Assembly: GCA_965261255.1 (NCBI GenBank)
Contig: CBDHCQ010000004.1
Coordinates: 3,507,710 to 3,571,709 of the forward strand
Direction: 5' to 3'
DNA length: 64,000 bases
From: Rhodothermales bacterium
GTDB lineage: Bacteria > Bacteroidota > Rhodothermia > Rhodothermales > Bin80
The position numbers were made by a program, and so were the translations under genes. Below the pieces are notes generated by a model. That model searched no databases. It was given only the letters and a program-made list of their open reading frames with translations, and was not told the DNA's origin. Below, piece after piece: positions 220 through 10,277 of the stretch (within the stretch, counting starts at the first letter, position 1; every line of letters starts with the position of its first letter).

Positions 220-3200
220 TCAATTCGACTGCTTTTTCAAGCTGCGACTCTTCCACAGATAGTAAATAGCCGGAATAACGGCGAGCGTCAATACCGTGGA
301 AGAAATCATTCCTCCCACCATCGGGGTAACAATCGGTTTCATGACTTCTGATCCGGTACCATGGCTCCACAAGATCGGCAACAAACCAGCCACGATAGCC
401 AGCACCGTCATCATTTTCGGGCGCACACGATCAACAGCTCCCACAATGATTGCCTCGTAGAGGTCCCTGGGAGAGGTCATCCGCCCTTCCATAAGCCTTT
501 TGTTGTAGGCCTGATCGAGGTATAGCATCATGATGACTCCCGTTTCCGCAGCAACACCCGCAAGGGCAATAAAGCCGACACCGGCTGCAATGCTGAGGTT
601 GTAGCCAAACATGTACATCAGCCAAATTCCACCAACCAGCGAAAAGGGCAGTGATAACATCACGATCAAACTCTCTGTGACATTCTTAAAATTCAAATAC
701 AGCAGCAAGAAGATGATCAGAAGCGTCAGGGGCAACACAACCTGGAGGCGCCGTCGGGCGCGTTCCATGTACTCGTGTTGCCCACTCCAGATCATGCTGT
801 AACCCTCGGGAAAAGTGACCTGCTCATTCACCGATGCCCGGGCAGTCTCAACATAGGTGCCGATATCAACGTTCTGGAGGTCAATGTAAATCCAGGAGGT
901 CTTTCGAGCATTTTCGCTTTTGATGACCGTGGGACCCTTAACAATACTGAAATCAGCCACATAACTGAGCGGAATTTGAGTTCCTGTAGGGGTAGGGATG
1001 AGGACACGCTCAATTGCGGGCAGGTTGTCACGCAGTTCACGGCTATAGCGTACGTTGACGGGATAGCGCTCTAGGCCCTCAACAGTCTGCGTGACATTCA
1101 TCCCTCCGATGGCGGACATAATTACATCCTGTACATCACCGATGGTCAACCCATACCGGGCCGCCTCCCTACGGTCAATCTCGTAATCCAGAAAATTTCC
1201 CCCAACGGTTTTGTCGGACAATGCGCTCTGGGTGCCAGGTAGAAGCTGTAACACCGCAGCGATCTGTTCCCCCAGATCCGAAAGCACGGTTAAGTCCGGC
1301 CCCATCAGTTTAATGCCTAGTGGGGTTTTAATTCCAGTTGCCAGCATGTCAATCCGTGTCCTGATGGGCATAGTCCAGGCATTGGTTAGGCCGGGAAAGT
1401 TGATAGCACCGTCAAGTTCACTGATCAGTTTCTCCATGGTCATTCCATCGCGCCATTCTTCTTCCGGCTTGAGTGTGATGGTTGTCTCCAACATGGATAG
1501 CGGTGCCGGATCGGTCGCAGTGTCAGCGCGCCCAGCTTTGCCGAGAACATGCTCTACCTCGGGGAAACTCTTGATGATTTTGTCTGTCTGCTGCAAGAGC
1601 TCCTTCACTTTTGTGATACTTATTCCGGGATCTGTCGTGGGCATGTACAGCAAATCGCCTTCATTCAAGGGAGGCATATATTCAGTGCCAAGCTTCCCAA
1701 GAGGATAGATGGTTACAGCAAGGATTAGGAGAGAAGCAGTAATAGTGGCCCACCTGAATTGAAGGACGCGATGAATCACGGGCTGATAGCATCGGATGAG
1801 CAACCGATTTATGGGATTTTTCTTTTCTGGTAGAATTTTACCGCGGACTAGATATCCTATCAAGACAGGGACCGTAGTGATCGCCAAAAGCGCTGATGCG
1901 GCCATCGCATAGGTCTTTGTAAAAGCTAATGGCTTGAATAAGCGCCCCTCCTGCGCCTGCAGGGTGAAGATGGGTAGGAATGAAAGTGTAATGATCAGCA
2001 GCGAGTAGAAAAGAGCAGGCCCCACTTCCTTGCATGCATCAACGATGATTTGCCAGCGGTCTTTCTTCCCCGCATGACGCTCAAGGTGTTTGTGTGTGTT
2101 TTCAACCATTACGATGGCTGCGTCAACCATAGTCCCGATTGCGATAGCAATCCCGCTGAGTGACATGATATTGGCATTGAGGCCTTGTGCATTCATCACC
2201 CAAAACGCAATCAAAATCCCCAGTGGAATCGTGAAGATGGCGACCAGGGCACTACGGAAGTGTACCAGGAACAGGATCGTCACAAGTGCAACGATCAGGC
2301 TTTCCTCGAGAAGTTTGGTTCTCAGGTTGTTGATTGCCCGTTTGATCAGGCTACTACGGTCATAGGCAATTTTAATCTGTACACCTTCCGGCAGGCCTTT
2401 TTCCAATTCTGCCAGCTTTGTCCTTACAGCATCAATAGTCTTGAGTGCATTTTCACCGTAGCGCATGACCACAATACCGCCAACAACTTCTCCTTCGCCA
2501 TCCCAGTCAGTGAGTCCTCGTCGTAGTTCTGGCCCCAGATGTACGTTCGCAACGTTACGGATAAGGATCGGAGTTCCATTTTCATCCACACCAACCGGCG
2601 TGTTCTGAATGTCTGTAATCGATTGGATATACCCTAGGCCGCGAACCATGAATTCGGTCTCTCCCATTTCAATCAACTTCCCTCCCACATCGTTATTACT
2701 TCGCTGTAATGCGACACGTACACTTGATAGGGGCACATCATGGGCCAGGAGTTTATTTGGATCCACCTCGACCTGGTACTGCTTGACGTAGCCACCGATA
2801 GAAGCCACTTCTGCGACTCCCGGCACACTCATTAATTCGTAACGGAGAAACCAGTCTTGAATTGAGCGTAACTGGTGGAGATCGTAGCGATCACCTCCAT
2901 CAAGGACATATTCAAAAACCCATCCCACTCCCGTCGCATCGGGTCCCAGCGTGGGCGTCACGCTCTCGGGCAGGCGATCACCGACATAGTTGAGATATTC
3001 CAGCACACGGCTACGTGCCCAGTAGATATCTGTGCCATCCTCGAAAATGATATAGACAAAGGAGTGTCCAAACGATGAGTAACCACGTACAGCCTTGGCA
3101 AAGGGAACAGACATCATAGCCGTGGTTAAGGGATACGTCACCTGATCTTCTACGACCTGTGGGGCCTGTCCAGGGAACTCGGTGAATACAATGACCTGTA

Positions 3201-3333
3201 CATCACTTAAGTCAGGGATGGCATCCACTGGTGTGCGAAGCATTGCGTAGATCCCGGCGCCTGCAACTGCAAGCGTGAAGAGAATCACGAAAACCCGATT
3301 CTTGACAGAGCTCTCTATAATCTTCTCGAGCAT
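220..3333 (-). CDS. cusA: CusA/SilA-family heavy-metal RND efflux permease (Cu(I)/Ag(I) type)
   Basis: 1037 aa; starts with DAIPDLSDVQVI...GQAPQVVEDQVTYP; motifs LLYMP, PLSMLET and RIDMLATG carry the three Met residues typical of the CusA Cu(I) site; GAVDRVRPKMMT near the C-terminus. Confidence 0.95.
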   Translation of the reverse strand: MLEKIIESSVKNRVFVILFTLAVAGAGIYAMLRTPVDAIPDLSDVQVIVFTEFPGQAPQVVEDQVTYPLTTAMMSVPFAKAVRGYSSFGHSFVYIIFEDGTDIYWARSRVLEYLNYVGDRLPESVTPTLGPDATGVGWVFEYVLDGGDRYDLHQLRSIQDWFLRYELMSVPGVAEVASIGGYVKQYQVEVDPNKLLAHDVPLSSVRVALQRSNNDVGGKLIEMGETEFMVRGLGYIQSITDIQNTPVGVDENGTPILIRNVANVHLGPELRRGLTDWDGEGEVVGGIVVMRYGENALKTIDAVRTKLAELEKGLPEGVQIKIAYDRSSLIKRAINNLRTKLLEESLIVALVTILFLVHFRSALVAIFTIPLGILIAFWVMNAQGLNANIMSLSGIAIAIGTMVDAAIVMVENTHKHLERHAGKKDRWQIIVDACKEVGPALFYSLLIITLSFLPIFTLQAQEGRLFKPLAFTKTYAMAASALLAITTVPVLIGYLVRGKILPEKKNPINRLLIRCYQPVIHRVLQFRWATITASLLILAVTIYPLGKLGTEYMPPLNEGDLLYMPTTDPGISITKVKELLQQTDKIIKSFPEVEHVLGKAGRADTATDPAPLSMLETTITLKPEEEWRDGMTMEKLISELDGAINFPGLTNAWTMPIRTRIDMLATGIKTPLGIKLMGPDLTVLSDLGEQIAAVLQLLPGTQSALSDKTVGGNFLDYEIDRREAARYGLTIGDVQDVIMSAIGGMNVTQTVEGLERYPVNVRYSRELRDNLPAIERVLIPTPTGTQIPLSYVADFSIVKGPTVIKSENARKTSWIYIDLQNVDIGTYVETARASVNEQVTFPEGYSMIWSGQHEYMERARRRLQVVLPLTLLIIFLLLYLNFKNVTESLIVMLSLPFSLVGGIWLMYMFGYNLSIAAGVGFIALAGVAAETGVIMMLYLDQAYNKRLMEGRMTSPRDLYEAIIVGAVDRVRPKMMTVLAIVAGLLPILWSHGTGSEVMKPIVTPMVGGMISSTVLTLAVIPAIYYLWKSRSLKKQSN

Positions 3334-3374: not shown

Positions 3375-4766
3375 TTAATGATTGTGTTGGTGCTCCATCG
3401 GTATTGATTCATCGGTAGCAGAGCGGCTCATCAACGTATCCATATCCGTCATCTGGGTCTCCGAATCTGTTGGCGAAGAGAGCATTTTGCGAAGAGTTTC
3501 CTGGAGTTGACTCTCGCTGTCCAGCATAAACTGGGCGGAGGAGACAACCTGTTCATGTCCAGACAGGCCAGCGAGGATGCGGACATACTGGTTGTCTGGC
3601 CCGCCCTCTTCTCCAATCAAAACTTCACGAGGTTCAAATCGACCATTTCCATGTGCAATGAAAACGATGGTGCGTGTTCCAGAGCGCACGATTGATTCAG
3701 AATGAACGACCAGGGCATCGGGGATTATATGTCCCTGTAATTCCACATTGGCGTACATACCTGGCTTCAATTCCAGACCAGGGTTTAAGAAAATCAGGCG
3801 GACATGGACATCACGTGCTTTTTCTCGCAGGTAGGGATAGATGTAGGACACCCGGCCGGTATAGGTTTTGCCCGGTAAATATGACAGCTCCATTTTTACC
3901 GGCTGTCCATCGCTGATCCAGGGTACTTCATTGTCATAAAAACTGGCGTGTACCCACACCATACTCAGATCGGCGATCTCAAAAAGATCCTGGCCTGCCT
4001 CAATGTATGCCCCTTCAATTGCGTTTCTTTTGACGACAATACCCGTAGCGGGGGCGACCAGCAGGATGGTTTTCTGAATCTCACCGGACTGGGTCAACCG
4101 ATCAACTTCTGCTGAAGGAATATCCCAGTTCTCCAAACGATTCCGGGCGGAAACCAGAAGTCTTTCAGCGTCTTCCCGTATGGATGGAAGACTGCTTTTT
4201 GCAAGTTGCCGGTAGTTACTGAGGGCCAATAAATACTCCTGCTGTGTGGAAACCAATTCGGGAGAATAGATCTCCAGTAATGAATCCCCCTGCTGTACTT
4301 GGTCGCCAACAAAATGAACATGGAGATTCTGAATCCAGCCGGAAACTTTCGTATTCACCAGAAAAAGATTCTCTTCGTCGTACTGAACTTCACCGACCGT
4401 GTGAATCGTGCGGGAGAAATCCAGCCGCTGAACCGCTTCGGTTCGAACTCCCATATTCTGAACTGTGACAGGGTCAATCAACACCGCATTATCTGATTGC
4501 ATCTCGGCATCCTCCTCGTAGACAGGGATCAGATCCATGCCCATCTTTGATTTGCCAGGTTGGTCATAGATCTCTGTCGGATCCATTGGGGCGCGCCAGT
4601 AAAGGATGGTTTGCTCATCCGTCAAATCTGGCTCTTGAGATTGCATCCCTTCCGGTTCAATGGTCAAGCGTCCGAAAAAAAAGCTCGCAACCACGACAAT
4701 CATCAGGAGCAGAATCCCGCCCACTATTTTGAATTGTTTTTGTGTAGTCATCATGCTCTTGGTCAA
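3375..4766 (-). CDS. cusB: CusB-like RND periplasmic adaptor with Met-rich heavy-metal-binding domain
   Basis: N-terminal TM helix; YWRAPMDP...PGKSKMGMDL motif; YSPELVSTQQEYL; LKPGMY; SAQFMLDSES; His-rich tail MEHQHNH; sits between the TolC-family gene and cusA. Confidence 0.92.
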   Translation of the reverse strand: MTKSMMTTQKQFKIVGGILLLMIVVVASFFFGRLTIEPEGMQSQEPDLTDEQTILYWRAPMDPTEIYDQPGKSKMGMDLIPVYEEDAEMQSDNAVLIDPVTVQNMGVRTEAVQRLDFSRTIHTVGEVQYDEENLFLVNTKVSGWIQNLHVHFVGDQVQQGDSLLEIYSPELVSTQQEYLLALSNYRQLAKSSLPSIREDAERLLVSARNRLENWDIPSAEVDRLTQSGEIQKTILLVAPATGIVVKRNAIEGAYIEAGQDLFEIADLSMVWVHASFYDNEVPWISDGQPVKMELSYLPGKTYTGRVSYIYPYLREKARDVHVRLIFLNPGLELKPGMYANVELQGHIIPDALVVHSESIVRSGTRTIVFIAHGNGRFEPREVLIGEEGGPDNQYVRILAGLSGHEQVVSSAQFMLDSESQLQETLRKMLSSPTDSETQMTDMDTLMSRSATDESIPMEHQHNH

Positions 4767-6091
4767 CGAAGTGATGGAAATATGTCAAGATCGGCGAGGG
4801 AGTCGACGCCGAGTACCTGCTCTAGGAGGGCCGTAATCTGCAAGTAGCGGGAGAATGTGTCTTCATAGTCCGTGTTGAGTGTGAACAGCATCCGCTCTGC
4901 ATCCAACAGATCCAGGTAATCTGTATCTCCAGTGGTGTAGGAGTTGAGTGTGGCTTCGAGAACCGTTTCTGCCTGTGGAATAAGGCCCTCTCGAAATAAC
5001 AGGATCTGTTTGGTGACTTCCCCTAGTTGATGAACAAGGCCGGTGATCTCCGTCTTGAATGAAGTTTCAAGCGACTCTCGGTGCGCGTTAATTTCGCTGC
5101 GATATACACGGGCTTCCTCCAGCTGAGCTCGCAACCGAGTTCGTTGAAGCGGTACCTTCAAGAGTACTCCAATAGCCACGGCATCTCGACCCGAAGCGGT
5201 TGCTGGCACATCCGCACTACCAATATCAAAGTAGGTGATGTTCAGGCCGAAGTCTGGTTTGAATTGTTTTCTGGCCAGCAAAATTTCTGCATCTATGCGC
5301 CGCGCAGTTGCACGAAGGGCGTCAATTTCAGGACGTTCGCGTAGAGCGATATCGAGTAGCGCACCGGTATCAAACTCAATGAAGGGCAATGATTCCACCT
5401 GGATGGAGTCAAGGGATAAGTTTGTCGCGGATTGATTCACAAGGTATGCTAGCGTTTTGCCAGCGACGTGTCGCTGTTCCGCGAGCTTGAACTGCAGACG
5501 AGATAGAGCATTTCTCTCCAGTTGTGTTTTCGAGATCGCCTGTTGGACATCCAAGCCTACCTCATAGCGGGTTGCTGCAGTTTGTTCAAAGCTTTCCAGT
5601 CTATTTCGGAAAGCAGAAATATGTCGCTCCTGTTGTTGAATGCGATAGAGTTCGTAGTAGGCTTGCTTGGCTTCAAGGAAAAGGGTTTTTTCGAACGCTT
5701 GTGATTCAAAGTTCTCTGTTTTGGCATTCAGATTGGCGATGGTTCCCCGTAATTTTAGTTTCCCGGGGTAGGGAATGGTTTGTTCAATGCTCCACTGACT
5801 CCGCTGCGTGCCGAGCGCGGTAAGGAGTGAGTAGGGTTGGTAGGTGATTTTCACCGTTGGGTCTGGAAGTGCGGAGACCTGATCTCTTCTATAGGTCAAT
5901 GCTCTTGCCTTCAGACGAGATGCCAGCAGCGACGGGTTGTTGCTGCGGACTTCTTCAAGAAGATCATTGAGGTTCAATAAAGCATTTACGGTCGTATCCG
6001 GCTGATGCTGACCATCAGCAGCGGTCGGGCGCAGTAATAATGCTAGAAATACGACGGCGAAGGTCGCACCAACGAGAAAGCGTTGTTTCAT
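4763..6091 (-). CDS. TolC/CusC-family outer-membrane efflux protein
   Basis: Signal peptide; NNPSL, LPDP, QTIPYPGKL and YTTGDTDYLDLLDAER OEP-type motifs; 4-bp overlap with cusB. Confidence 0.9.
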   Translation of the reverse strand: MKQRFLVGATFAVVFLALLLRPTAADGQHQPDTTVNALLNLNDLLEEVRSNNPSLLASRLKARALTYRRDQVSALPDPTVKITYQPYSLLTALGTQRSQWSIEQTIPYPGKLKLRGTIANLNAKTENFESQAFEKTLFLEAKQAYYELYRIQQQERHISAFRNRLESFEQTAATRYEVGLDVQQAISKTQLERNALSRLQFKLAEQRHVAGKTLAYLVNQSATNLSLDSIQVESLPFIEFDTGALLDIALRERPEIDALRATARRIDAEILLARKQFKPDFGLNITYFDIGSADVPATASGRDAVAIGVLLKVPLQRTRLRAQLEEARVYRSEINAHRESLETSFKTEITGLVHQLGEVTKQILLFREGLIPQAETVLEATLNSYTTGDTDYLDLLDAERMLFTLNTDYEDTFSRYLQITALLEQVLGVDSLADLDIFPSLR

Positions 6092-6094
6092 CAG

Positions 6095-6185
6095 TTCTGA
6101 TCAAATAGAGTAATCCGTTGCAATACATCGAAGTACAGTAGGTCAGCACTTCGGTACTGGAATCACACTATTTCTCAGATCAGAA
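6095..6185 (-). promoter_or_regulatory. Long mRNA hairpin pairing the last codons of the leader ORF with the cusC translation-initiation region
   Basis: TTCTGATC-AAATAG (6095-6108) is complementary to CTATTT-[ctca]-GATCAGAA (6168-6185); inner helices 6110-6116/6159-6166, 6121-6126/6154-6159 and 6129-6136/6146-6153 each contain a G-U pair only on the minus (mRNA) strand. Confidence 0.7.
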
Positions 6186-6627
6186 AGATGAGCAGCAGGG
6201 CCTGCCTGTCTACGGCAGGAAGTGGAGGGATGGTTTTTTGGGAATGCCTTTGATTGAAGTCTCTGAGCACTTCCTTTTCGAAGGGTTTGTGCGTGGGGGA
6301 ATCAGAGAGCGGCTGCAAGTCATTCCGGCAATGGTTTAGAAACAGAGCCTCCTCAACTGCCGGTGTTGCTTCAAGTGTACAACATTGCAGGGTATCCGAA
6401 GAAGGGCAAGGCAGGTTTGTAGCATGCGTCATGCCCCCGTTTTCATGGATGCAGGGAGGAGTCTGATCGGAAGAATGGCTTGGTTCCGATGTAGAATGAT
6501 GGCTCACATGCTCGGCTATCTGACTCATTGCGCAGAGGGGTTGCAGGAGCGGTCCTGCTGCACTCAACAGTAGTCCCACGCAAAGCAGGAGAGGGAGAAG
6601 CGTATGTTTTCTTAGCGCAGAGAGCAT
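6175..6627 (-). CDS. Cys/His-rich exported leader-type protein ending PP...FLI, upstream of the cus operon
   Basis: 150 aa; hydrophobic N-terminus, His-rich linker, CC pair, C-terminus IPPLPAVDRQALLLIFLI; co-oriented 83 bp upstream of the TolC-family gene. Confidence 0.75.
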   Translation of the reverse strand: MLSALRKHTLLPLLLCVGLLLSAAGPLLQPLCAMSQIAEHVSHHSTSEPSHSSDQTPPCIHENGGMTHATNLPCPSSDTLQCCTLEATPAVEEALFLNHCRNDLQPLSDSPTHKPFEKEVLRDFNQRHSQKTIPPLPAVDRQALLLIFLI

Positions 6628-7196
6628 GAAAAGGAGCGTAATTCCTTAGGCCGCGGCGGATCCGAGACAATCCCGTATTAATACTACCGATGTCATTGGA
6701 CTAGGTTCGATTTAGCTGGAGTGCCGATAAAATTCGGTAAATGGTACGTAATAATCCTCTGTCACCGTCTTGAAACTCTGTTAATACACGATTCATGTCA
6801 GGAAATATAATAGACTCCCAAAGTCTTACGGTGGCAGCAAAATCTTCTACAGTGTGAGGAGGCACGATTGCTCAAATGACGTGAAATCAAGTGGACGCGA
6901 TCTTTCCGGGATACTCTTTTCCATCAACATCTTTTGAAATCGTCACAGATCGGTTTGTATGAGGGACCTATGTACAGGCAGACTGCCTGCGAGACTGCCT
7001 ATTGGGGAGGAGTTGTATAAACAGCTCTTGAACTAGCCCTGGTTCGTGTGTTTGGGCAAAAAACGCTAGGTTCTACCATCGCTCCAAGATGCCTTTGTTC
7101 ACTAACTACGTCCCTCCGTTCTCCCCGAAATGGGAACATACGGTTGACAACTGGCGAACCAGGGACGGATAAACTAAATGCTACCGCTCAGCAGTA

Positions 7197-10100
7197 ATGC
7201 CAAAGAAACTGGTTCCTGGCCTGTATGACAAGGTATTTACAGAAGGGAATCATCATGTCGTCGAAAAGGATCCATCGCTGCGCGCGCACACCGAGAAGCT
7301 GCAGAGTCACACAGGAGTCCGACTGCTGTCGCAGCATCTGAGCAAGCTTATTGAGCGTGCACTGAGGAAGTCCAACGACAATTGGGTTGAACTGGCCAAC
7401 GACCTGATTCGGGTCATCGAAAATAATACACAAGGGGGCGTAGTACAGCAATCAGATCTTGTTACAAATACCCGGTTGAAAGAGCTTGCACAAGGCGTTC
7501 AAGCTCAAATGGATACGCAAACCAGACGACCCGGGATACCGCTTTCGTATTCAGAGTTGCTAACGAATGCTTCAAACGATTACCGTATTGGACACGAACT
7601 GAAACGGGAAATTGAGTCCGCCGATCGGATTGATATTCTGATAGCATTTATCAAGTGGTCCGGGCTTCGTCTTGTACGCGAAGCATTGCAGGACTTTGTC
7701 GCAAGGGGAGGAAAGCTGCGGGTGATTACGACGACCTATATGAAGGCGACCGAGCGGCAGGCCATTGATGAACTGATCCAGGTAGGCGCCGAGATTAAGA
7801 TCTCGTATGACACTCGCCGCACACGACTCCACGCAAAAGCATGGTTGCTTCACCGAGAAACGGGTTTTTCAACCGCCTTCGTTGGTTCTTCAAACCTAAG
7901 CGCAGCGGCACAACTGGACGGACTCGAATGGAATGTCCGGCTGTCCAAAGTAGATGCCGGACGAATCATTGACAAAATTGAAGCTGCTTTCAGAAATTAT
8001 TGGGAGGACGTTGAGTTCGAAAGCTATGACGGCAGCCCGGAATGCCGAGAACGATTTGATACAGCTGTAAGGGAAGAGCCTTCGCCTGGACGCATTACGA
8101 GCCTGGAGGTCCATCCTTACCCGTTCCAGCAGGAAATCTTGGATAAGCTGGATGTGGAACGCACGGTCCATGGTCGAACGCGTAATCTTGTTGTTGCAGC
8201 TACCGGTACAGGTAAAACCGTCATGGCCGCATTGGATTATCGTCGACTGGCTCGCCACATAAGTCCTCTGCGCCTCCTGTTCGTTGCCCATAGAGCGGAA
8301 ATCCTGCAGCAGGCGCGTACGACTTTTAGAGATGTCTTGAAGCACAACACCTTTGGGGAAGACTATGTGGGCGGGTCACAGCCCCAGAAATGGGACCATG
8401 TATTTGCTTCCGTTCAGTCTCTTGCAAACTTTGATCTCGATAAGATCAACCCAAAGCATTTCGGGATGATCATTATCGATGAATTTCATCATGCTGCTGC
8501 AAAAACGTATCAGAGACTTCTTGAGCATTTTCATCCTCGCTATCTACTGGGGCTCACTGCGACCCCCGAACGTGCGGACGGAAAGGATATTCTTTCCTGG
8601 TTCGGAGGCCGCGTTGCCGCAGAGCTGAGAGTCTGGGATGCCATTGATCGTGGTCTACTGGTTCCGTTCCATTACTTCGGGCGGCATGACGGTGGAGATT
8701 TGTCTTCTGTGCGATGGGTTCGTGGTAAATATGATGACGCTGAATTGACTCGTCTCTTTACCGCTGATGATATTCGTGTACTGAAGATCCTGAAAGTGGT
8801 CCGAGAGCACATTGCCGATCCTCTGAAGATGCGTGCATTAGGGTTCTGCGTCAGTGTGTCTCATGCTGAATTCATGACGCGAAAATTCAATAGTGCGGGC
8901 ATTCCTGCCGCCTGCATTACGGGGAAGACTCCCAGAGAAGAACGAAAACGTGCACAAGACCGGCTGAGAGCGTGCAAGGTGAACATACTCTTCTCCGTGG
9001 ATGTGCTCGGAGAAGGGGTGGACATTCCTCCGGTGGATACCATCCTGATGCTGAGACCAACCAACAGTGCTACTGTGTTTATTCAGCAATTGGGGCGTGG
9101 ACTCCGTTTCGCTGGGGGCAAAACCTGTCTAACCGTCTTGGACTTCATCAGCAACAGTGCAAGAAAGTTTCGGTTCGACTATGCCCTTGGGGCCATGCTT
9201 GGGAGGGTTACACGCAAATCCGTTAAAGAGGCGGTTGAGAAGGATTTTCCTGCCCTGCCGTCAGGATGCTCTCTCCAGTTGGATCAGGAGAGTAAGGAAG
9301 TCGTTCTGAACAATCTAAAGGCGCAACTTCGTTATGGGTCGAGAGAACTGGTGCGCTTGCTTCGTCGCCTGGGAGACCGGACCACCTTGAAGACTTTCCT
9401 GGATGCAGCGGAGTTGTCAATTGAAGATTTCTATTCCAAAAGACCCAACAGTTTTACGTTATTGCGCCGGAGAGCTGGTTTCTCCGCGGCCAGTGAGGGG
9501 CCGGACGAGGCTAATATCGGAAGCAGATTAAAACTGTTGACTCATGCGGATGACGCTTCCCGGCTCGACTTCATACGCCAAGCCGCCCAGGGCAGTCTGA
9601 GCGTGAGCGAGTTGTCCGAACGGGATCGGCGCCGTCTCCTCATGTTGGTGTGCGTGCTGCTGGGTGGGAAGGCGGCAAACGATCTACGCGCAGGCTACAA
9701 CAAAATCCTTGCTCATCCTGCTATCTGCGAGGAACTCATTTCGCTGACAGGTTTATTGAAAGAAAACATCGCACATACGCCTTCCCAGTATGTAATCGCT
9801 CCCGAGGTTCCGCTGGAGTTACATACGAGATATTCAATGCGGGAAATAGTTTCTGCGTTCAATAGAGTAGGAAAGGGGGGATTGCATCCTATACGGGAGG
9901 GGATTCGTTTTGATAAAGCAACAAGCTGCAATATGATTTTCGTAACTATTCACAAAAATGAAAAGGACTATGCCAGCACTGCAATGTACCGGGACTATGC
10001 GATCAACGCCCATCGCTTTCATTGGCAATCCCAACACAACACTAGGTCAGGCAGCATGACGGGCCGTCGCCATACACACCATGAAACTCTTGGGATAACC

Positions 10101-10277
10101 CCTCTGCTCTTTGTGCGTACCGCCAAGAAGACCGATTATGGGCTTACAATGCCGTACCAGTTCTTGGGACCGGCATCATACCAGCGGCATGAAGGAGAAC
10201 AGCCGATGAGCATTATCTGGGAAATGAAGTACCCGATTCCAGCCGACATTGTCCGAAACATGCGTCTTGCTGCATAG
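7197..10277 (+). CDS. PLD(HKD) nuclease - SF2 helicase - DUF3427 fusion (SauUSI-like type IV restriction enzyme candidate)
   Basis: LHAK...VGSSNLS PLD motif; helicase motifs AATGTGKT, DEFHH, TATP and QQLGRGLR; C-terminal YRDYAIN..RFHWQSQ typical of DUF3427. Confidence 0.88.
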   Translation: MPKKLVPGLYDKVFTEGNHHVVEKDPSLRAHTEKLQSHTGVRLLSQHLSKLIERALRKSNDNWVELANDLIRVIENNTQGGVVQQSDLVTNTRLKELAQGVQAQMDTQTRRPGIPLSYSELLTNASNDYRIGHELKREIESADRIDILIAFIKWSGLRLVREALQDFVARGGKLRVITTTYMKATERQAIDELIQVGAEIKISYDTRRTRLHAKAWLLHRETGFSTAFVGSSNLSAAAQLDGLEWNVRLSKVDAGRIIDKIEAAFRNYWEDVEFESYDGSPECRERFDTAVREEPSPGRITSLEVHPYPFQQEILDKLDVERTVHGRTRNLVVAATGTGKTVMAALDYRRLARHISPLRLLFVAHRAEILQQARTTFRDVLKHNTFGEDYVGGSQPQKWDHVFASVQSLANFDLDKINPKHFGMIIIDEFHHAAAKTYQRLLEHFHPRYLLGLTATPERADGKDILSWFGGRVAAELRVWDAIDRGLLVPFHYFGRHDGGDLSSVRWVRGKYDDAELTRLFTADDIRVLKILKVVREHIADPLKMRALGFCVSVSHAEFMTRKFNSAGIPAACITGKTPREERKRAQDRLRACKVNILFSVDVLGEGVDIPPVDTILMLRPTNSATVFIQQLGRGLRFAGGKTCLTVLDFISNSARKFRFDYALGAMLGRVTRKSVKEAVEKDFPALPSGCSLQLDQESKEVVLNNLKAQLRYGSRELVRLLRRLGDRTTLKTFLDAAELSIEDFYSKRPNSFTLLRRRAGFSAASEGPDEANIGSRLKLLTHADDASRLDFIRQAAQGSLSVSELSERDRRRLLMLVCVLLGGKAANDLRAGYNKILAHPAICEELISLTGLLKENIAHTPSQYVIAPEVPLELHTRYSMREIVSAFNRVGKGGLHPIREGIRFDKATSCNMIFVTIHKNEKDYASTAMYRDYAINAHRFHWQSQHNTRSGSMTGRRHTHHETLGITPLLFVRTAKKTDYGLTMPYQFLGPASYQRHEGEQPMSIIWEMKYPIPADIVRNMRLAA

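Follow-up and report, generated by a model that had tools for sequence, protein, structure and literature searches.

The window analysed is a DNA stretch of 64,000 nt from a Rhodothermales bacterium (GenBank assembly GCA_965261255.1, contig CBDHCQ010000004.1, positions 3,507,710 to 3,571,709 of the forward strand), and the element under study is a short gene, here called the leader, that heads a cus-type efflux operon coded on the minus strand. The leader gene (6175..6627, minus strand) is an open reading frame (ORF) of 150 codons with an ATG start and a TGA stop. Its product of 150 aa belongs to a conserved family without a Pfam or NCBIfam model. In the preliminary description of this locus the left edge was set at 6095, as the spacer before cusC had been added to the ORF span. 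After a spacer of 83 nt, on the same strand, follows the gene of a cusC-like outer-membrane efflux protein of 442 aa (4763..6091, minus strand; Pfam OEP, 8.5e-28), which is the gene proposed to be under control. Its stop is overlapped by 4 nt by the gene of a cusB-like periplasmic adaptor of 463 aa (3375..4766, minus strand; HlyD_D23, 3.3e-75), and this protein matched the NCBIfam CusB model at 2e-54, under the curated cut-off of the model. The last gene, coding for a cusA-like resistance-nodulation-division (RND) pump of 1037 aa, is at 220..3333 (minus strand; ACR_tran, 8.4e-244). The position of the ORF at the head of a cus operon, as described previously, is confirmed by these cusC-, cusB-, and cusA-like genes downstream on the same strand. 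One copy of the leader is present in the window's genome.

The leader protein starts with MLSALRKH, followed by a hydrophobic stretch of 19 residues. Residues 1-35 (6523..6627, minus strand) represent a putative signal or signal-anchor segment that ends at the invariant Cys32 and has R6, L15, L19, L20, L27, and C32 conserved; its signal-like nature was assessed by eye and from a helix at residues 3-35 in the AlphaFold2 model. Residues 32-100 (6328..6534, minus strand) form a Cys/His-rich, putatively metal-binding region that is predicted to be disordered, with invariant or nearly invariant columns at C32, H44, P58-C59, P73-C74, and C82-C83. The seven cysteines of the protein are residues 16, 32, 59, 74, 82, 83, and 100, the CC pair at 82-83 (6379-6384, minus strand) is invariant in the alignment, and the His-rich segment is HVSHHSTSEPSH. 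A linker at residues 84-139 (6211..6378, minus strand) is, according to spacing and identity counts, kept in length and variable in sequence. It contains PP at residues 134-135 (6223-6228), after which there are 12 residues and the final FLI-stop. The tail DRQALLLIFLI (residues 140-150, 6178..6210, minus strand) is the candidate pausing element. The signal-like N-terminus, His-rich linker, CC, and PP...FLI ending listed in the preliminary description can all be seen in the sequence. RAPP and CxxC, noted there as lacking, and also CxxxC, were not found when the protein sequence was read.

The AlphaFold2 model, computed with an alignment of 88 rows, consists of the helix at residues 3-35, residues 36-137 without structure, and a short helix at residues 138-149. 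The mean predicted local distance difference test score (pLDDT) is 63.9 (68/90/83 in the N-terminal block) and the predicted template modelling score (pTM) is 0.28. No globular or folded periplasmic domain was predicted in the leader by this model, by which a metal-dependent fold could be missed. Differences among homologues per codon position 1/2/3 are 0.465/0.371/0.564, which is the pattern expected of a coding sequence. Judged from its sequence, the leader is a conserved and apparently exported Cys/His-rich protein, and in all cases it heads metal genes.

A scan of public collections recognized close relatives in metagenome-assembled genomes of Rhodothermaceae/Rhodothermales, two loci of which are nearly identical to each other or to the window's locus, and a word-indexed search found three relatives of the leader protein. 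In a six-frame search, matches were obtained in 24 genomes out of 61 related ones, a count that includes the window's own genome and 17 of the 23 others of its genus. Twenty loci were fetched from related genomes. They all have open frames of 137-155 codons in the same layout, and together with the window they make up the close set of 21 Rhodothermales loci to which the counts below refer. The gene after the leader encodes an OEP in 20 of the 20 fetched loci, so that homologues do lie upstream of metal-transport genes, a point that the preliminary description had left to be checked. Nineteen of the 21 loci have a spacer of 83-90 nt, and the two most distant ones have spacers of 64 and 73 nt. 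The genes upstream of the leader vary from genome to genome. Protein identity falls to 21-35%, with architecture, spacing, and pairing kept.

Residues L20, C32, H44, P73, C82, C83, and L149 are invariant in the close family, and R6, P58-C59, C74, R141, Q142, F148, and I150 are nearly invariant. The best conserved block is formed by the last ten residues, with a value of 0.75 compared with 0.39-0.47 over the preceding 50 residues. The conserved C-terminus and gene context expected of homologues were thus found, with this block at the end of the protein and metal genes downstream. Synonymous codons for D, R, Q, A, and T are exchanged freely in the tail, which indicates selection on the peptide there. 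The string TTY CTG ATC TGA at the leader end is nearly invariant, as expected if both the peptide and the pairing described below are constraining it. Among 131 pooled family sequences, which are not independent and include some duplicates, the C-terminal triplets are FLI (63), FLN (13), LLI (13), FLT (10), LLN (7), and others (25).

The distance from CC to the C-terminus has a median of 68 residues and an interquartile range of 67-70 in the 117 of these 131 sequences that have CC. There are six outliers (14, 14, 86, 86, 91, and 101), in which another CC exists. When CC is 55-80 residues from the end (n = 111), the spread of the distance is 2.5 residues, against 9.8 for the distance from the first Cys to CC. 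The median ungapped identity of the linker between CC and tail is only 0.13. In the window's leader there are 67 residues from CC to the end and 51 from CC to PP. A nearly constant length from CC to the end over a variable linker fits sensing during co-translational export. The weight given to PP as an arrest element in the preliminary description was not upheld, as 11 of the 21 loci have no PP among the last 20 residues. Also, the PP codons (6223-6228) are 45 nt before the stop, and the helix described below begins at 6191; with ribosome footprint sizes taken from general knowledge, a ribosome at PP ends about 19 nt short of the helix, and the pause must therefore be at the stop codon or next to it.

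The end of the leader and the start of cusC are joined by a predicted RNA hairpin of about 104 nt (6088..6191, minus strand), identified by folding, by its presence in all 21 loci, and by covariation. Its 5' base arm (6178-6191) covers codons L146-I150 and its 3' base arm (6088-6102) covers the cusC ATG and the preceding 11 nt. In the predicted pairing, nt 6191-6187 (L146/I147) are paired with 6088-6092, which holds the cusC ATG at 6091-6089, and nt 6185-6178 (F148-L149-I150) are paired with 6095-6102. The leader stop codon is bulged, and the predicted helix continues to an apical loop. The fold of 171 nt has a minimum free energy of -57.8 kcal/mol compared with -37.1 ± 3.8 for shuffled sequences (z = -5.41), and none of the 200 shuffles was as stable. 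The same hairpin architecture was obtained in 21 of 21 close loci, each folded singly, and in each of them the ORF end forms at least 10 pairs with the region of the next start. As a control, at least 10 such pairs were present in 21 of 185 same-strand ORF pairs with gaps of 60-140 nt from the window's own genome; the control pairs are crude calls, and one of the 21 positives is the leader-cusC locus itself. The pairing between leader end and cusC start is more than chance. The base-pairing of the last codons with the cusC start region, proposed in the preliminary description, is hence confirmed by the fold, its z-score, and its recurrence at every close locus.

In alignment A3 (18 sequences), 86.0% of cells are paired, a share that drops to 33-44% when the partner is shifted by 1-3 columns. 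The covariation score is 0.251 versus at most 0.093 for the shifted partner, and changes on both sides were seen in 12 of 37 pairs; the structure scored is a consensus of individual folds, and the hairpin interior could not be aligned across clades. The most telling cases of apparent compensation are loci L026, with the tail FLT-stop, and L027, with LLN-stop, where the opposite arm is altered to match and the helix is kept. When a ribosome footprint with the stop codon in the A site was imposed on the fold, the main helix was gone and about 20 kcal/mol were lost. There is no U-tract after the hairpin, which therefore is not an intrinsic terminator, and terminator-like matches at the locus have stems of 5-7 bp and are of no weight. 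Rfam gave no match to the hairpin at E<=1. Covariance model R1 recovered its training loci and L010, matched L036, L038, and L039 weakly, and had no match in L026 or L027. Outside the close clade, the RNA is conserved as an architecture and not as a sequence family. A further small hairpin of 6 bp (CCUGCC...GGCAGG; 6201-6219, minus strand) lies over codons 137-142 and is present in the window clade only.

No Shine-Dalgarno enrichment was found in the genome: an SD-like 4-mer is present at -20..-4 in 11.5% of the 1784 long ORFs with an ATG start, no position stands out, and a mild A-richness was seen at -17..-13; the start assignments in this survey are crude. As there is no such enrichment, it is the start-codon region itself that the helix would hide, and an open start should be all the more important. 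Since the last codons and the stop of the leader are paired with the cusC start region, cusC would be initiated efficiently only with the helix open.

Pfam and NCBIfam gave no match to the window's leader at E<=1, and none to any of the 21 family members, taken singly, at E<=10. The comparison with hidden Markov models of DUF2946 and HYC_CC_PP, which had been proposed in the preliminary description, matched neither the window's protein nor its 20 close relatives. DUF2946 (Pfam PF11162, gathering score 23.7 bits) had no match to the window's leader at E<=1, to the 21 members at E<=10, or to 87 remote relatives at E<=0.1, and its only match in the genome-wide search (17.8 bits) is elsewhere, in a frame with six stops. 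HYC_CC_PP (NF047658, cut-off 28 bits) had no match to the window's leader, to the 21 members at E<=10, or in the window's genome, and the CopL family model (NF033807, cut-off 40 bits) none to the window's leader or the 21 members. CusF (PF11604) and other Pfam families did not match the leader, and no beta-barrel domain is present in the AlphaFold2 model. A sequence search of the Protein Data Bank with the leader gave no relative at E<=1 except one row at chance level.

An exhaustive profile search of 1.84 billion representatives recovered 88 proteins at E<=1e-3, 20 of them at E<=1e-10. The remote relatives have a common N-terminus of the form M..LRTYR, a hydrophobic stretch, and (H)xCAM, and share the CC motif and an ending such as GPP-x8-12-LHLLHAxFL[N/I/T]. 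One of the 87 new relatives, P0066, passes the HYC_CC_PP model (42.7 bits versus the cut-off of 28), and eight of the 87 have sub-threshold matches to the CopL family (13-27.7 bits versus 40). When 301 genomes across the phylum were searched with a profile, matches were found in 43. Four of 27 proteins from these phylum loci (L041, L049, L053, and L056) pass HYC_CC_PP at 31-77 bits; the search profile (A4) contained P0066, and the link to HYC_CC_PP is for this reason partly circular. A profile-profile comparison (hhalign) of the close family (A2) with five HYC_CC_PP members (A5) gave a weak match (probability 58%), over the N-terminus only. The leader family is most likely a remote relative of HYC_CC_PP and CopL on the basis of these profile scores. 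The suggestion of a fully separate family was accordingly not borne out, as the remote relatives include scored HYC_CC_PP members and sub-threshold CopL matches. DUF6769 and DUF8199, which came up as leads from ESM Atlas clusters (the nearest clusters being unnamed hypotheticals), were not supported by Pfam scans of the 21, 87, and 27 proteins.

Among 25 wider loci, the next gene encodes a CusA-like RND pump in 13 cases, an OEP in seven, a multicopper oxidase in four, and a DUF3347 protein in one. Leader end and next start were predicted to form at least 10 pairs in 14 of these 25 loci, and in 11 of the 17 with a spacer of 60-140 nt. The clade of L046, L050, L052, and L055 has a leader ending in ...YSPPLLFLANESLLI-stop that heads a multicopper oxidase, not a pump; in L046 there is an in-frame TGA just before the likely start. 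The sister clade of L036, L038, and L039 ends with RPPPDN[W/R]QALLC[I/T]FRN-stop, where PPP is joined directly to a DxQALL tail like the window's DRQALL. The window RNA model gave weak matches at the leader ends of these three loci (E 7e-5 to 0.03), and the leader of L038 precedes a DUF3347 protein. Protein P0030 (267 aa) contains the last ~60 residues of a CusA-like RND pump and a full family leader in one called frame; either the leader lies directly after another pump gene in some genomes, or the gene call overlooked a stop. Two leader-family copies, at different loci, are present in five genomes of the phylum sample (G039, G137, G214, G250, and G329).

CutF of Rhodobacter capsulatus (cutFOG), a DUF2946 protein exported via Sec, acts only in cis. 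Cu on its CxxxC prolongs stalling at the C-terminal PPP, upon which a stem-loop hiding the cutO ribosome-binding site melts, and the switch needs translation in cis, the Sec signal, the Cu motif, the C-terminal motif, and the stem-loop hiding the cutO start (PMC9973294; bioRxiv 10.1101/2025.02.05.636593). The spacing of 45 residues between the motifs was argued to place the Cu motif in the periplasmic SecY vestibule, with ~30 residues in the tunnel and ~17 in the membrane (PMC9973294). The leader resembles CutF as a small exported (in the leader, apparently exported) Cys-containing protein, directly upstream of a copper-detoxification gene in the case of CutF and of a cus-type pump in the case of the leader. 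In both, an intergenic stem-loop hides the downstream start region, by prediction for the leader, and importance is ascribed to a constant separation of metal motif and C-terminal element, which amounts to 45 residues in CutF; in the leader, CC is 51 residues away from PP and 67 away from the end. The 67 residues to the very end would fit the spacing logic of CutF if the ribosome were at the stop codon.

In contrast to CutF, the leader has no match to DUF2946, has CC and scattered Cys/His instead of CxxxC, and is without PPP, with PP being dispensable in its clade. Its helix starts 14 nt before the stop, and so the pause would be at FLI-stop. Moreover, the predicted hairpin hides the AUG itself, in a genome without Shine-Dalgarno usage, and not a Shine-Dalgarno sequence, and the leader heads an RND efflux operon, whereas CutF controls a multicopper oxidase. 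The arrangement of CutF-CutO is matched by the leaders of L046, L050, L052, and L055 before their multicopper oxidase. Of the earlier claim that the locus is an analogue of a CutF-type switch, the part that held is a predicted and covarying hairpin at the cusC start in every close locus; DUF2946, CxxxC, and PPP were not found. In the survey of PMC9973294, 5,334 CutF-like proteins are listed, many of them in Bacteroidota, with OEP/CusC as the commonest downstream neighbour and most spacers shorter than 100 nt, and CopL, SilD, CusD, and CzcI are placed among CutF-like proteins. With exactly 150 aa and PP at positions 16-17 from the end, the leader misses two filters of this survey by one or two residues.

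The uncharacterised family HYC_CC_PP (NF047658) shares with the leader a signal anchor ending in (H)xC, CC and PP at distances of about 69 and 10-16 residues from the C-terminus, respectively, and FLI as the last three residues, according to alignment A5, from which the meaning of the family name (motif order H-x-C, CC, PP) was also deduced; no paper on this name was found in the literature search. Its members head genes for CusA-like RND pumps or OEPs and were recovered by the leader-family profile. It differs in the His of HxC, which is absent in the window clade, the leader having P-L-C at residues 30-32. From CC to the end there are 69-71 residues in the four HYC_CC_PP-positive loci versus 67 in the window's leader. 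CopL of Xanthomonas is reported to be required in cis for copper-induced expression (PMC9973294). It is, like the leader before its pump, a small Cys/His-rich protein upstream of copper-resistance genes, with a copper oxidase downstream of CopL and an efflux pump downstream of the leader. CruR (Bp2923) of Bordetella pertussis, a DUF2946 protein with CXXC and RAPP, acts through Rho-dependent termination over a spacer of 162 nt, is a system in which copper represses, and controls an importer; its C-terminal residues control downstream expression through ribosome occupancy (PMC9426467). Both CruR and the leader are Cys-containing upstream ORF products heading a metal-related operon, but CXXC and RAPP are both absent from the leader. 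CzcI, SilD, and CusD of Cupriavidus metallidurans resemble the leader in genomic position, as small ORFs heading czcCBA- or cusCBA-type operons, and a C-terminal proline motif is described as absent in CzcI (PMC9973294).

With slightly better than even confidence, the leader is regarded as a cis-acting, co-translationally exported metal sensor, in which a ribosome paused at FLI-stop opens the cusC start. By analogy, it most likely works like the CutF/CopL leader peptides, with an unusual, non-proline ending. The hydrophobic N-terminus would direct the nascent chain to SecYEG. With the ribosome at the last codons, CC, about 67 residues back, would have just arrived at the periplasmic side of the translocon, and the conserved tail [D/N]RQAxLxxFLI would then sit in the exit tunnel. 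Cu(I)/Ag(I) bound to Cys/His residues would change the pull on the chain and delay release at FLI-stop. The parked ribosome would occupy the 5' arm of the hairpin and leave the cusC start free for a second ribosome. Without metal, termination would be fast, the hairpin would re-form, and little pump would be made. A broader proposal is more tentative and is held to be rather doubtful: the tail [D/N]RQAxLxxFLI-stop, or PP-x10-16-[F/L]L[I/N/T]-stop across the HYC_CC_PP-like superfamily, could represent a new class of proline-independent arrest peptide. It would pause at termination, be switched by metal on a CC one 'tunnel plus translocon' length (~68 residues) away, and be read out by a long-range helix hiding the start codon in a lineage without Shine-Dalgarno use. 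If so, it could be a widespread transmembrane metal sensor, found in 43 of 301 genomes sampled from the phylum and also in other phyla, and would work without a transcription factor.

Several points weigh against the cis-acting sensor. Stalling, metal binding, export, and cis-dependence are all inferred for the leader family, the leader has no known arrest motif, and no precedent for a pause at FLI-stop was found in the literature. Only 10 of the 21 close loci have PP among the last 20 residues, and the near-invariance of TTY CTG ATC TGA may reflect RNA pairing alone. The structure used for covariation came from the folds of the very sequences counted, which favours that structure, RNAalifold on a plain MAFFT alignment gave 13 pairs only, with weak energy, and about 11% of control gene pairs show comparable pairing. 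With the CusB match under its curated cut-off, the metal could be Cu/Ag or Zn/Co/Cd. A regulator encoded elsewhere in the genome may exist, and the conserved length of 150 aa would also suit a mature periplasmic protein. In the strongest of the other explanations, considered rather unlikely, the leader is an ordinary membrane-anchored or periplasmic metal-binding accessory of the pump (sponge or chaperone) or a CzcI-like trans factor, the hairpin serves constitutive coupling or mRNA stabilisation so that leader and pump would be produced jointly, and metal control, if any, is transcriptional from elsewhere. The conserved Cys/His ligands, a length kept at ~137-155 aa in the close family, the lack of a known arrest motif with PP unconserved, and the coupling-type hairpins in the control ORF pairs (21 of 185) all agree with an accessory protein. 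Furthermore, CzcI, encoded ahead of czcCBA, has been discussed as a regulator that senses metal and has no proline motif (PMC9973294). Against an accessory protein, residues 36-137 are disordered in the model (pTM 0.28), in which a globular fold is lacking, and the leader matched no CusF, other Pfam, NCBIfam, or Protein Data Bank family. Its most conserved part is the last 10 residues, and between CC and the tail the length is kept but not the sequence, which is odd for a folded domain and expected of a spacer. The helix also always takes in the very last codons and the next start.

Action on transcription, as in CruR or TnaC, is improbable: here the occupancy of the ribosome would control Rho access or RNA processing in the 83-nt spacer, and the hairpin would be a processing or stability element. 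CruR, a CutF-like leader, does work via Rho-dependent termination (PMC9426467; PMC9973294), the hairpin is long and stable, and RNA contigs cover both genes, though these do not discriminate. On the other hand, the folded spacer is almost fully double-stranded and leaves little free RNA for Rho loading, an intrinsic terminator is disfavoured by the missing U-tract, and the 3' arm lies consistently over the next start region, which is needed by a translational gate and not by a terminator. The last explanation, already disfavoured and very improbable, is that tail conservation and hairpin are by-products of a mobile cusCBA cassette among relatives, without a regulatory role. The four-gene unit is indeed module-like, with upstream neighbours differing by genome, but architecture, spacing, and pairing persist with compensatory changes at protein identities of 21-35%, and the same design heads other downstream genes in other clades.

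The likely 5' end or promoter-proximal region of a leader-cusCBA transcript is 6628..6692 (minus strand), for which metatranscriptome contigs are weak evidence. Contigs from a relative with ~95% identity span cusC, spacer, and leader and end at 6649 and 6692, i.e., 22 and 65 nt before the leader ATG. They come from two metatranscriptome runs of one study, with DNA carry-over possible. They are compatible with one transcript beginning just upstream of the leader, but the existence of a single transcript, its level, and a true 5' end are not proven by them. A scan upstream of the leader found no sigma-70-type promoter, and no operator-like palindrome was seen there in the alignment of the 21 loci. 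The sole upstream element common to the 21 loci is a short T-rich motif (TTTT, often TTTTGG) just before the leader start (6628-6645 in the window), which might belong to a Bacteroidota-type promoter or to a very short 5' leader. Neither the 8 kb that follow cusA nor the gene before the leader was found to encode a metal-responsive regulator. Beyond cusA are genes for biotin carboxylase, a DnaJ-like protein, a metallo-beta-lactamase-fold protein, and ferritin. Upstream of the leader, in divergent orientation, is a PLD-helicase-DUF3427 gene (7197-10277, plus strand). Its product of 1026 aa has a PLD-like nuclease domain, a helicase core of the ResIII/DEAD type, and DUF3427 at the C-terminus; it resembles nuclease-helicases of the defence or restriction type.

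Copper/silver efflux pumps are usually described as being under two-component systems or MerR-type regulators. The general idea of a leader gating a cus-type pump in Bacteroidota is already published as bioinformatics (PMC9973294). Four features were not found in print in the literature search: a tail that ends with FL[I/N/T]-stop, the absence of PP, the spacing of 68 residues, and a helix that closes from stop to start in a lineage without Shine-Dalgarno sequences. Because no Pfam or NCBIfam model exists for the leader family, its genes are currently unannotated. The nearly constant spacer of ~68 residues and the covarying helix offer sharp and cheap tests of the least understood step of the CutF model, in which the metal signal passes from outside the membrane to the ribosome. 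If the proposed reading is true, Rhodothermales, and related forms across the Bacteroidota-type phylum, would switch RND pumps and copper oxidases by a nascent peptide that senses periplasmic metal on the ribosome. Its ending would be unlike the studied proline motifs, and a helix that hides the start codon would suit bacteria without Shine-Dalgarno sequences.

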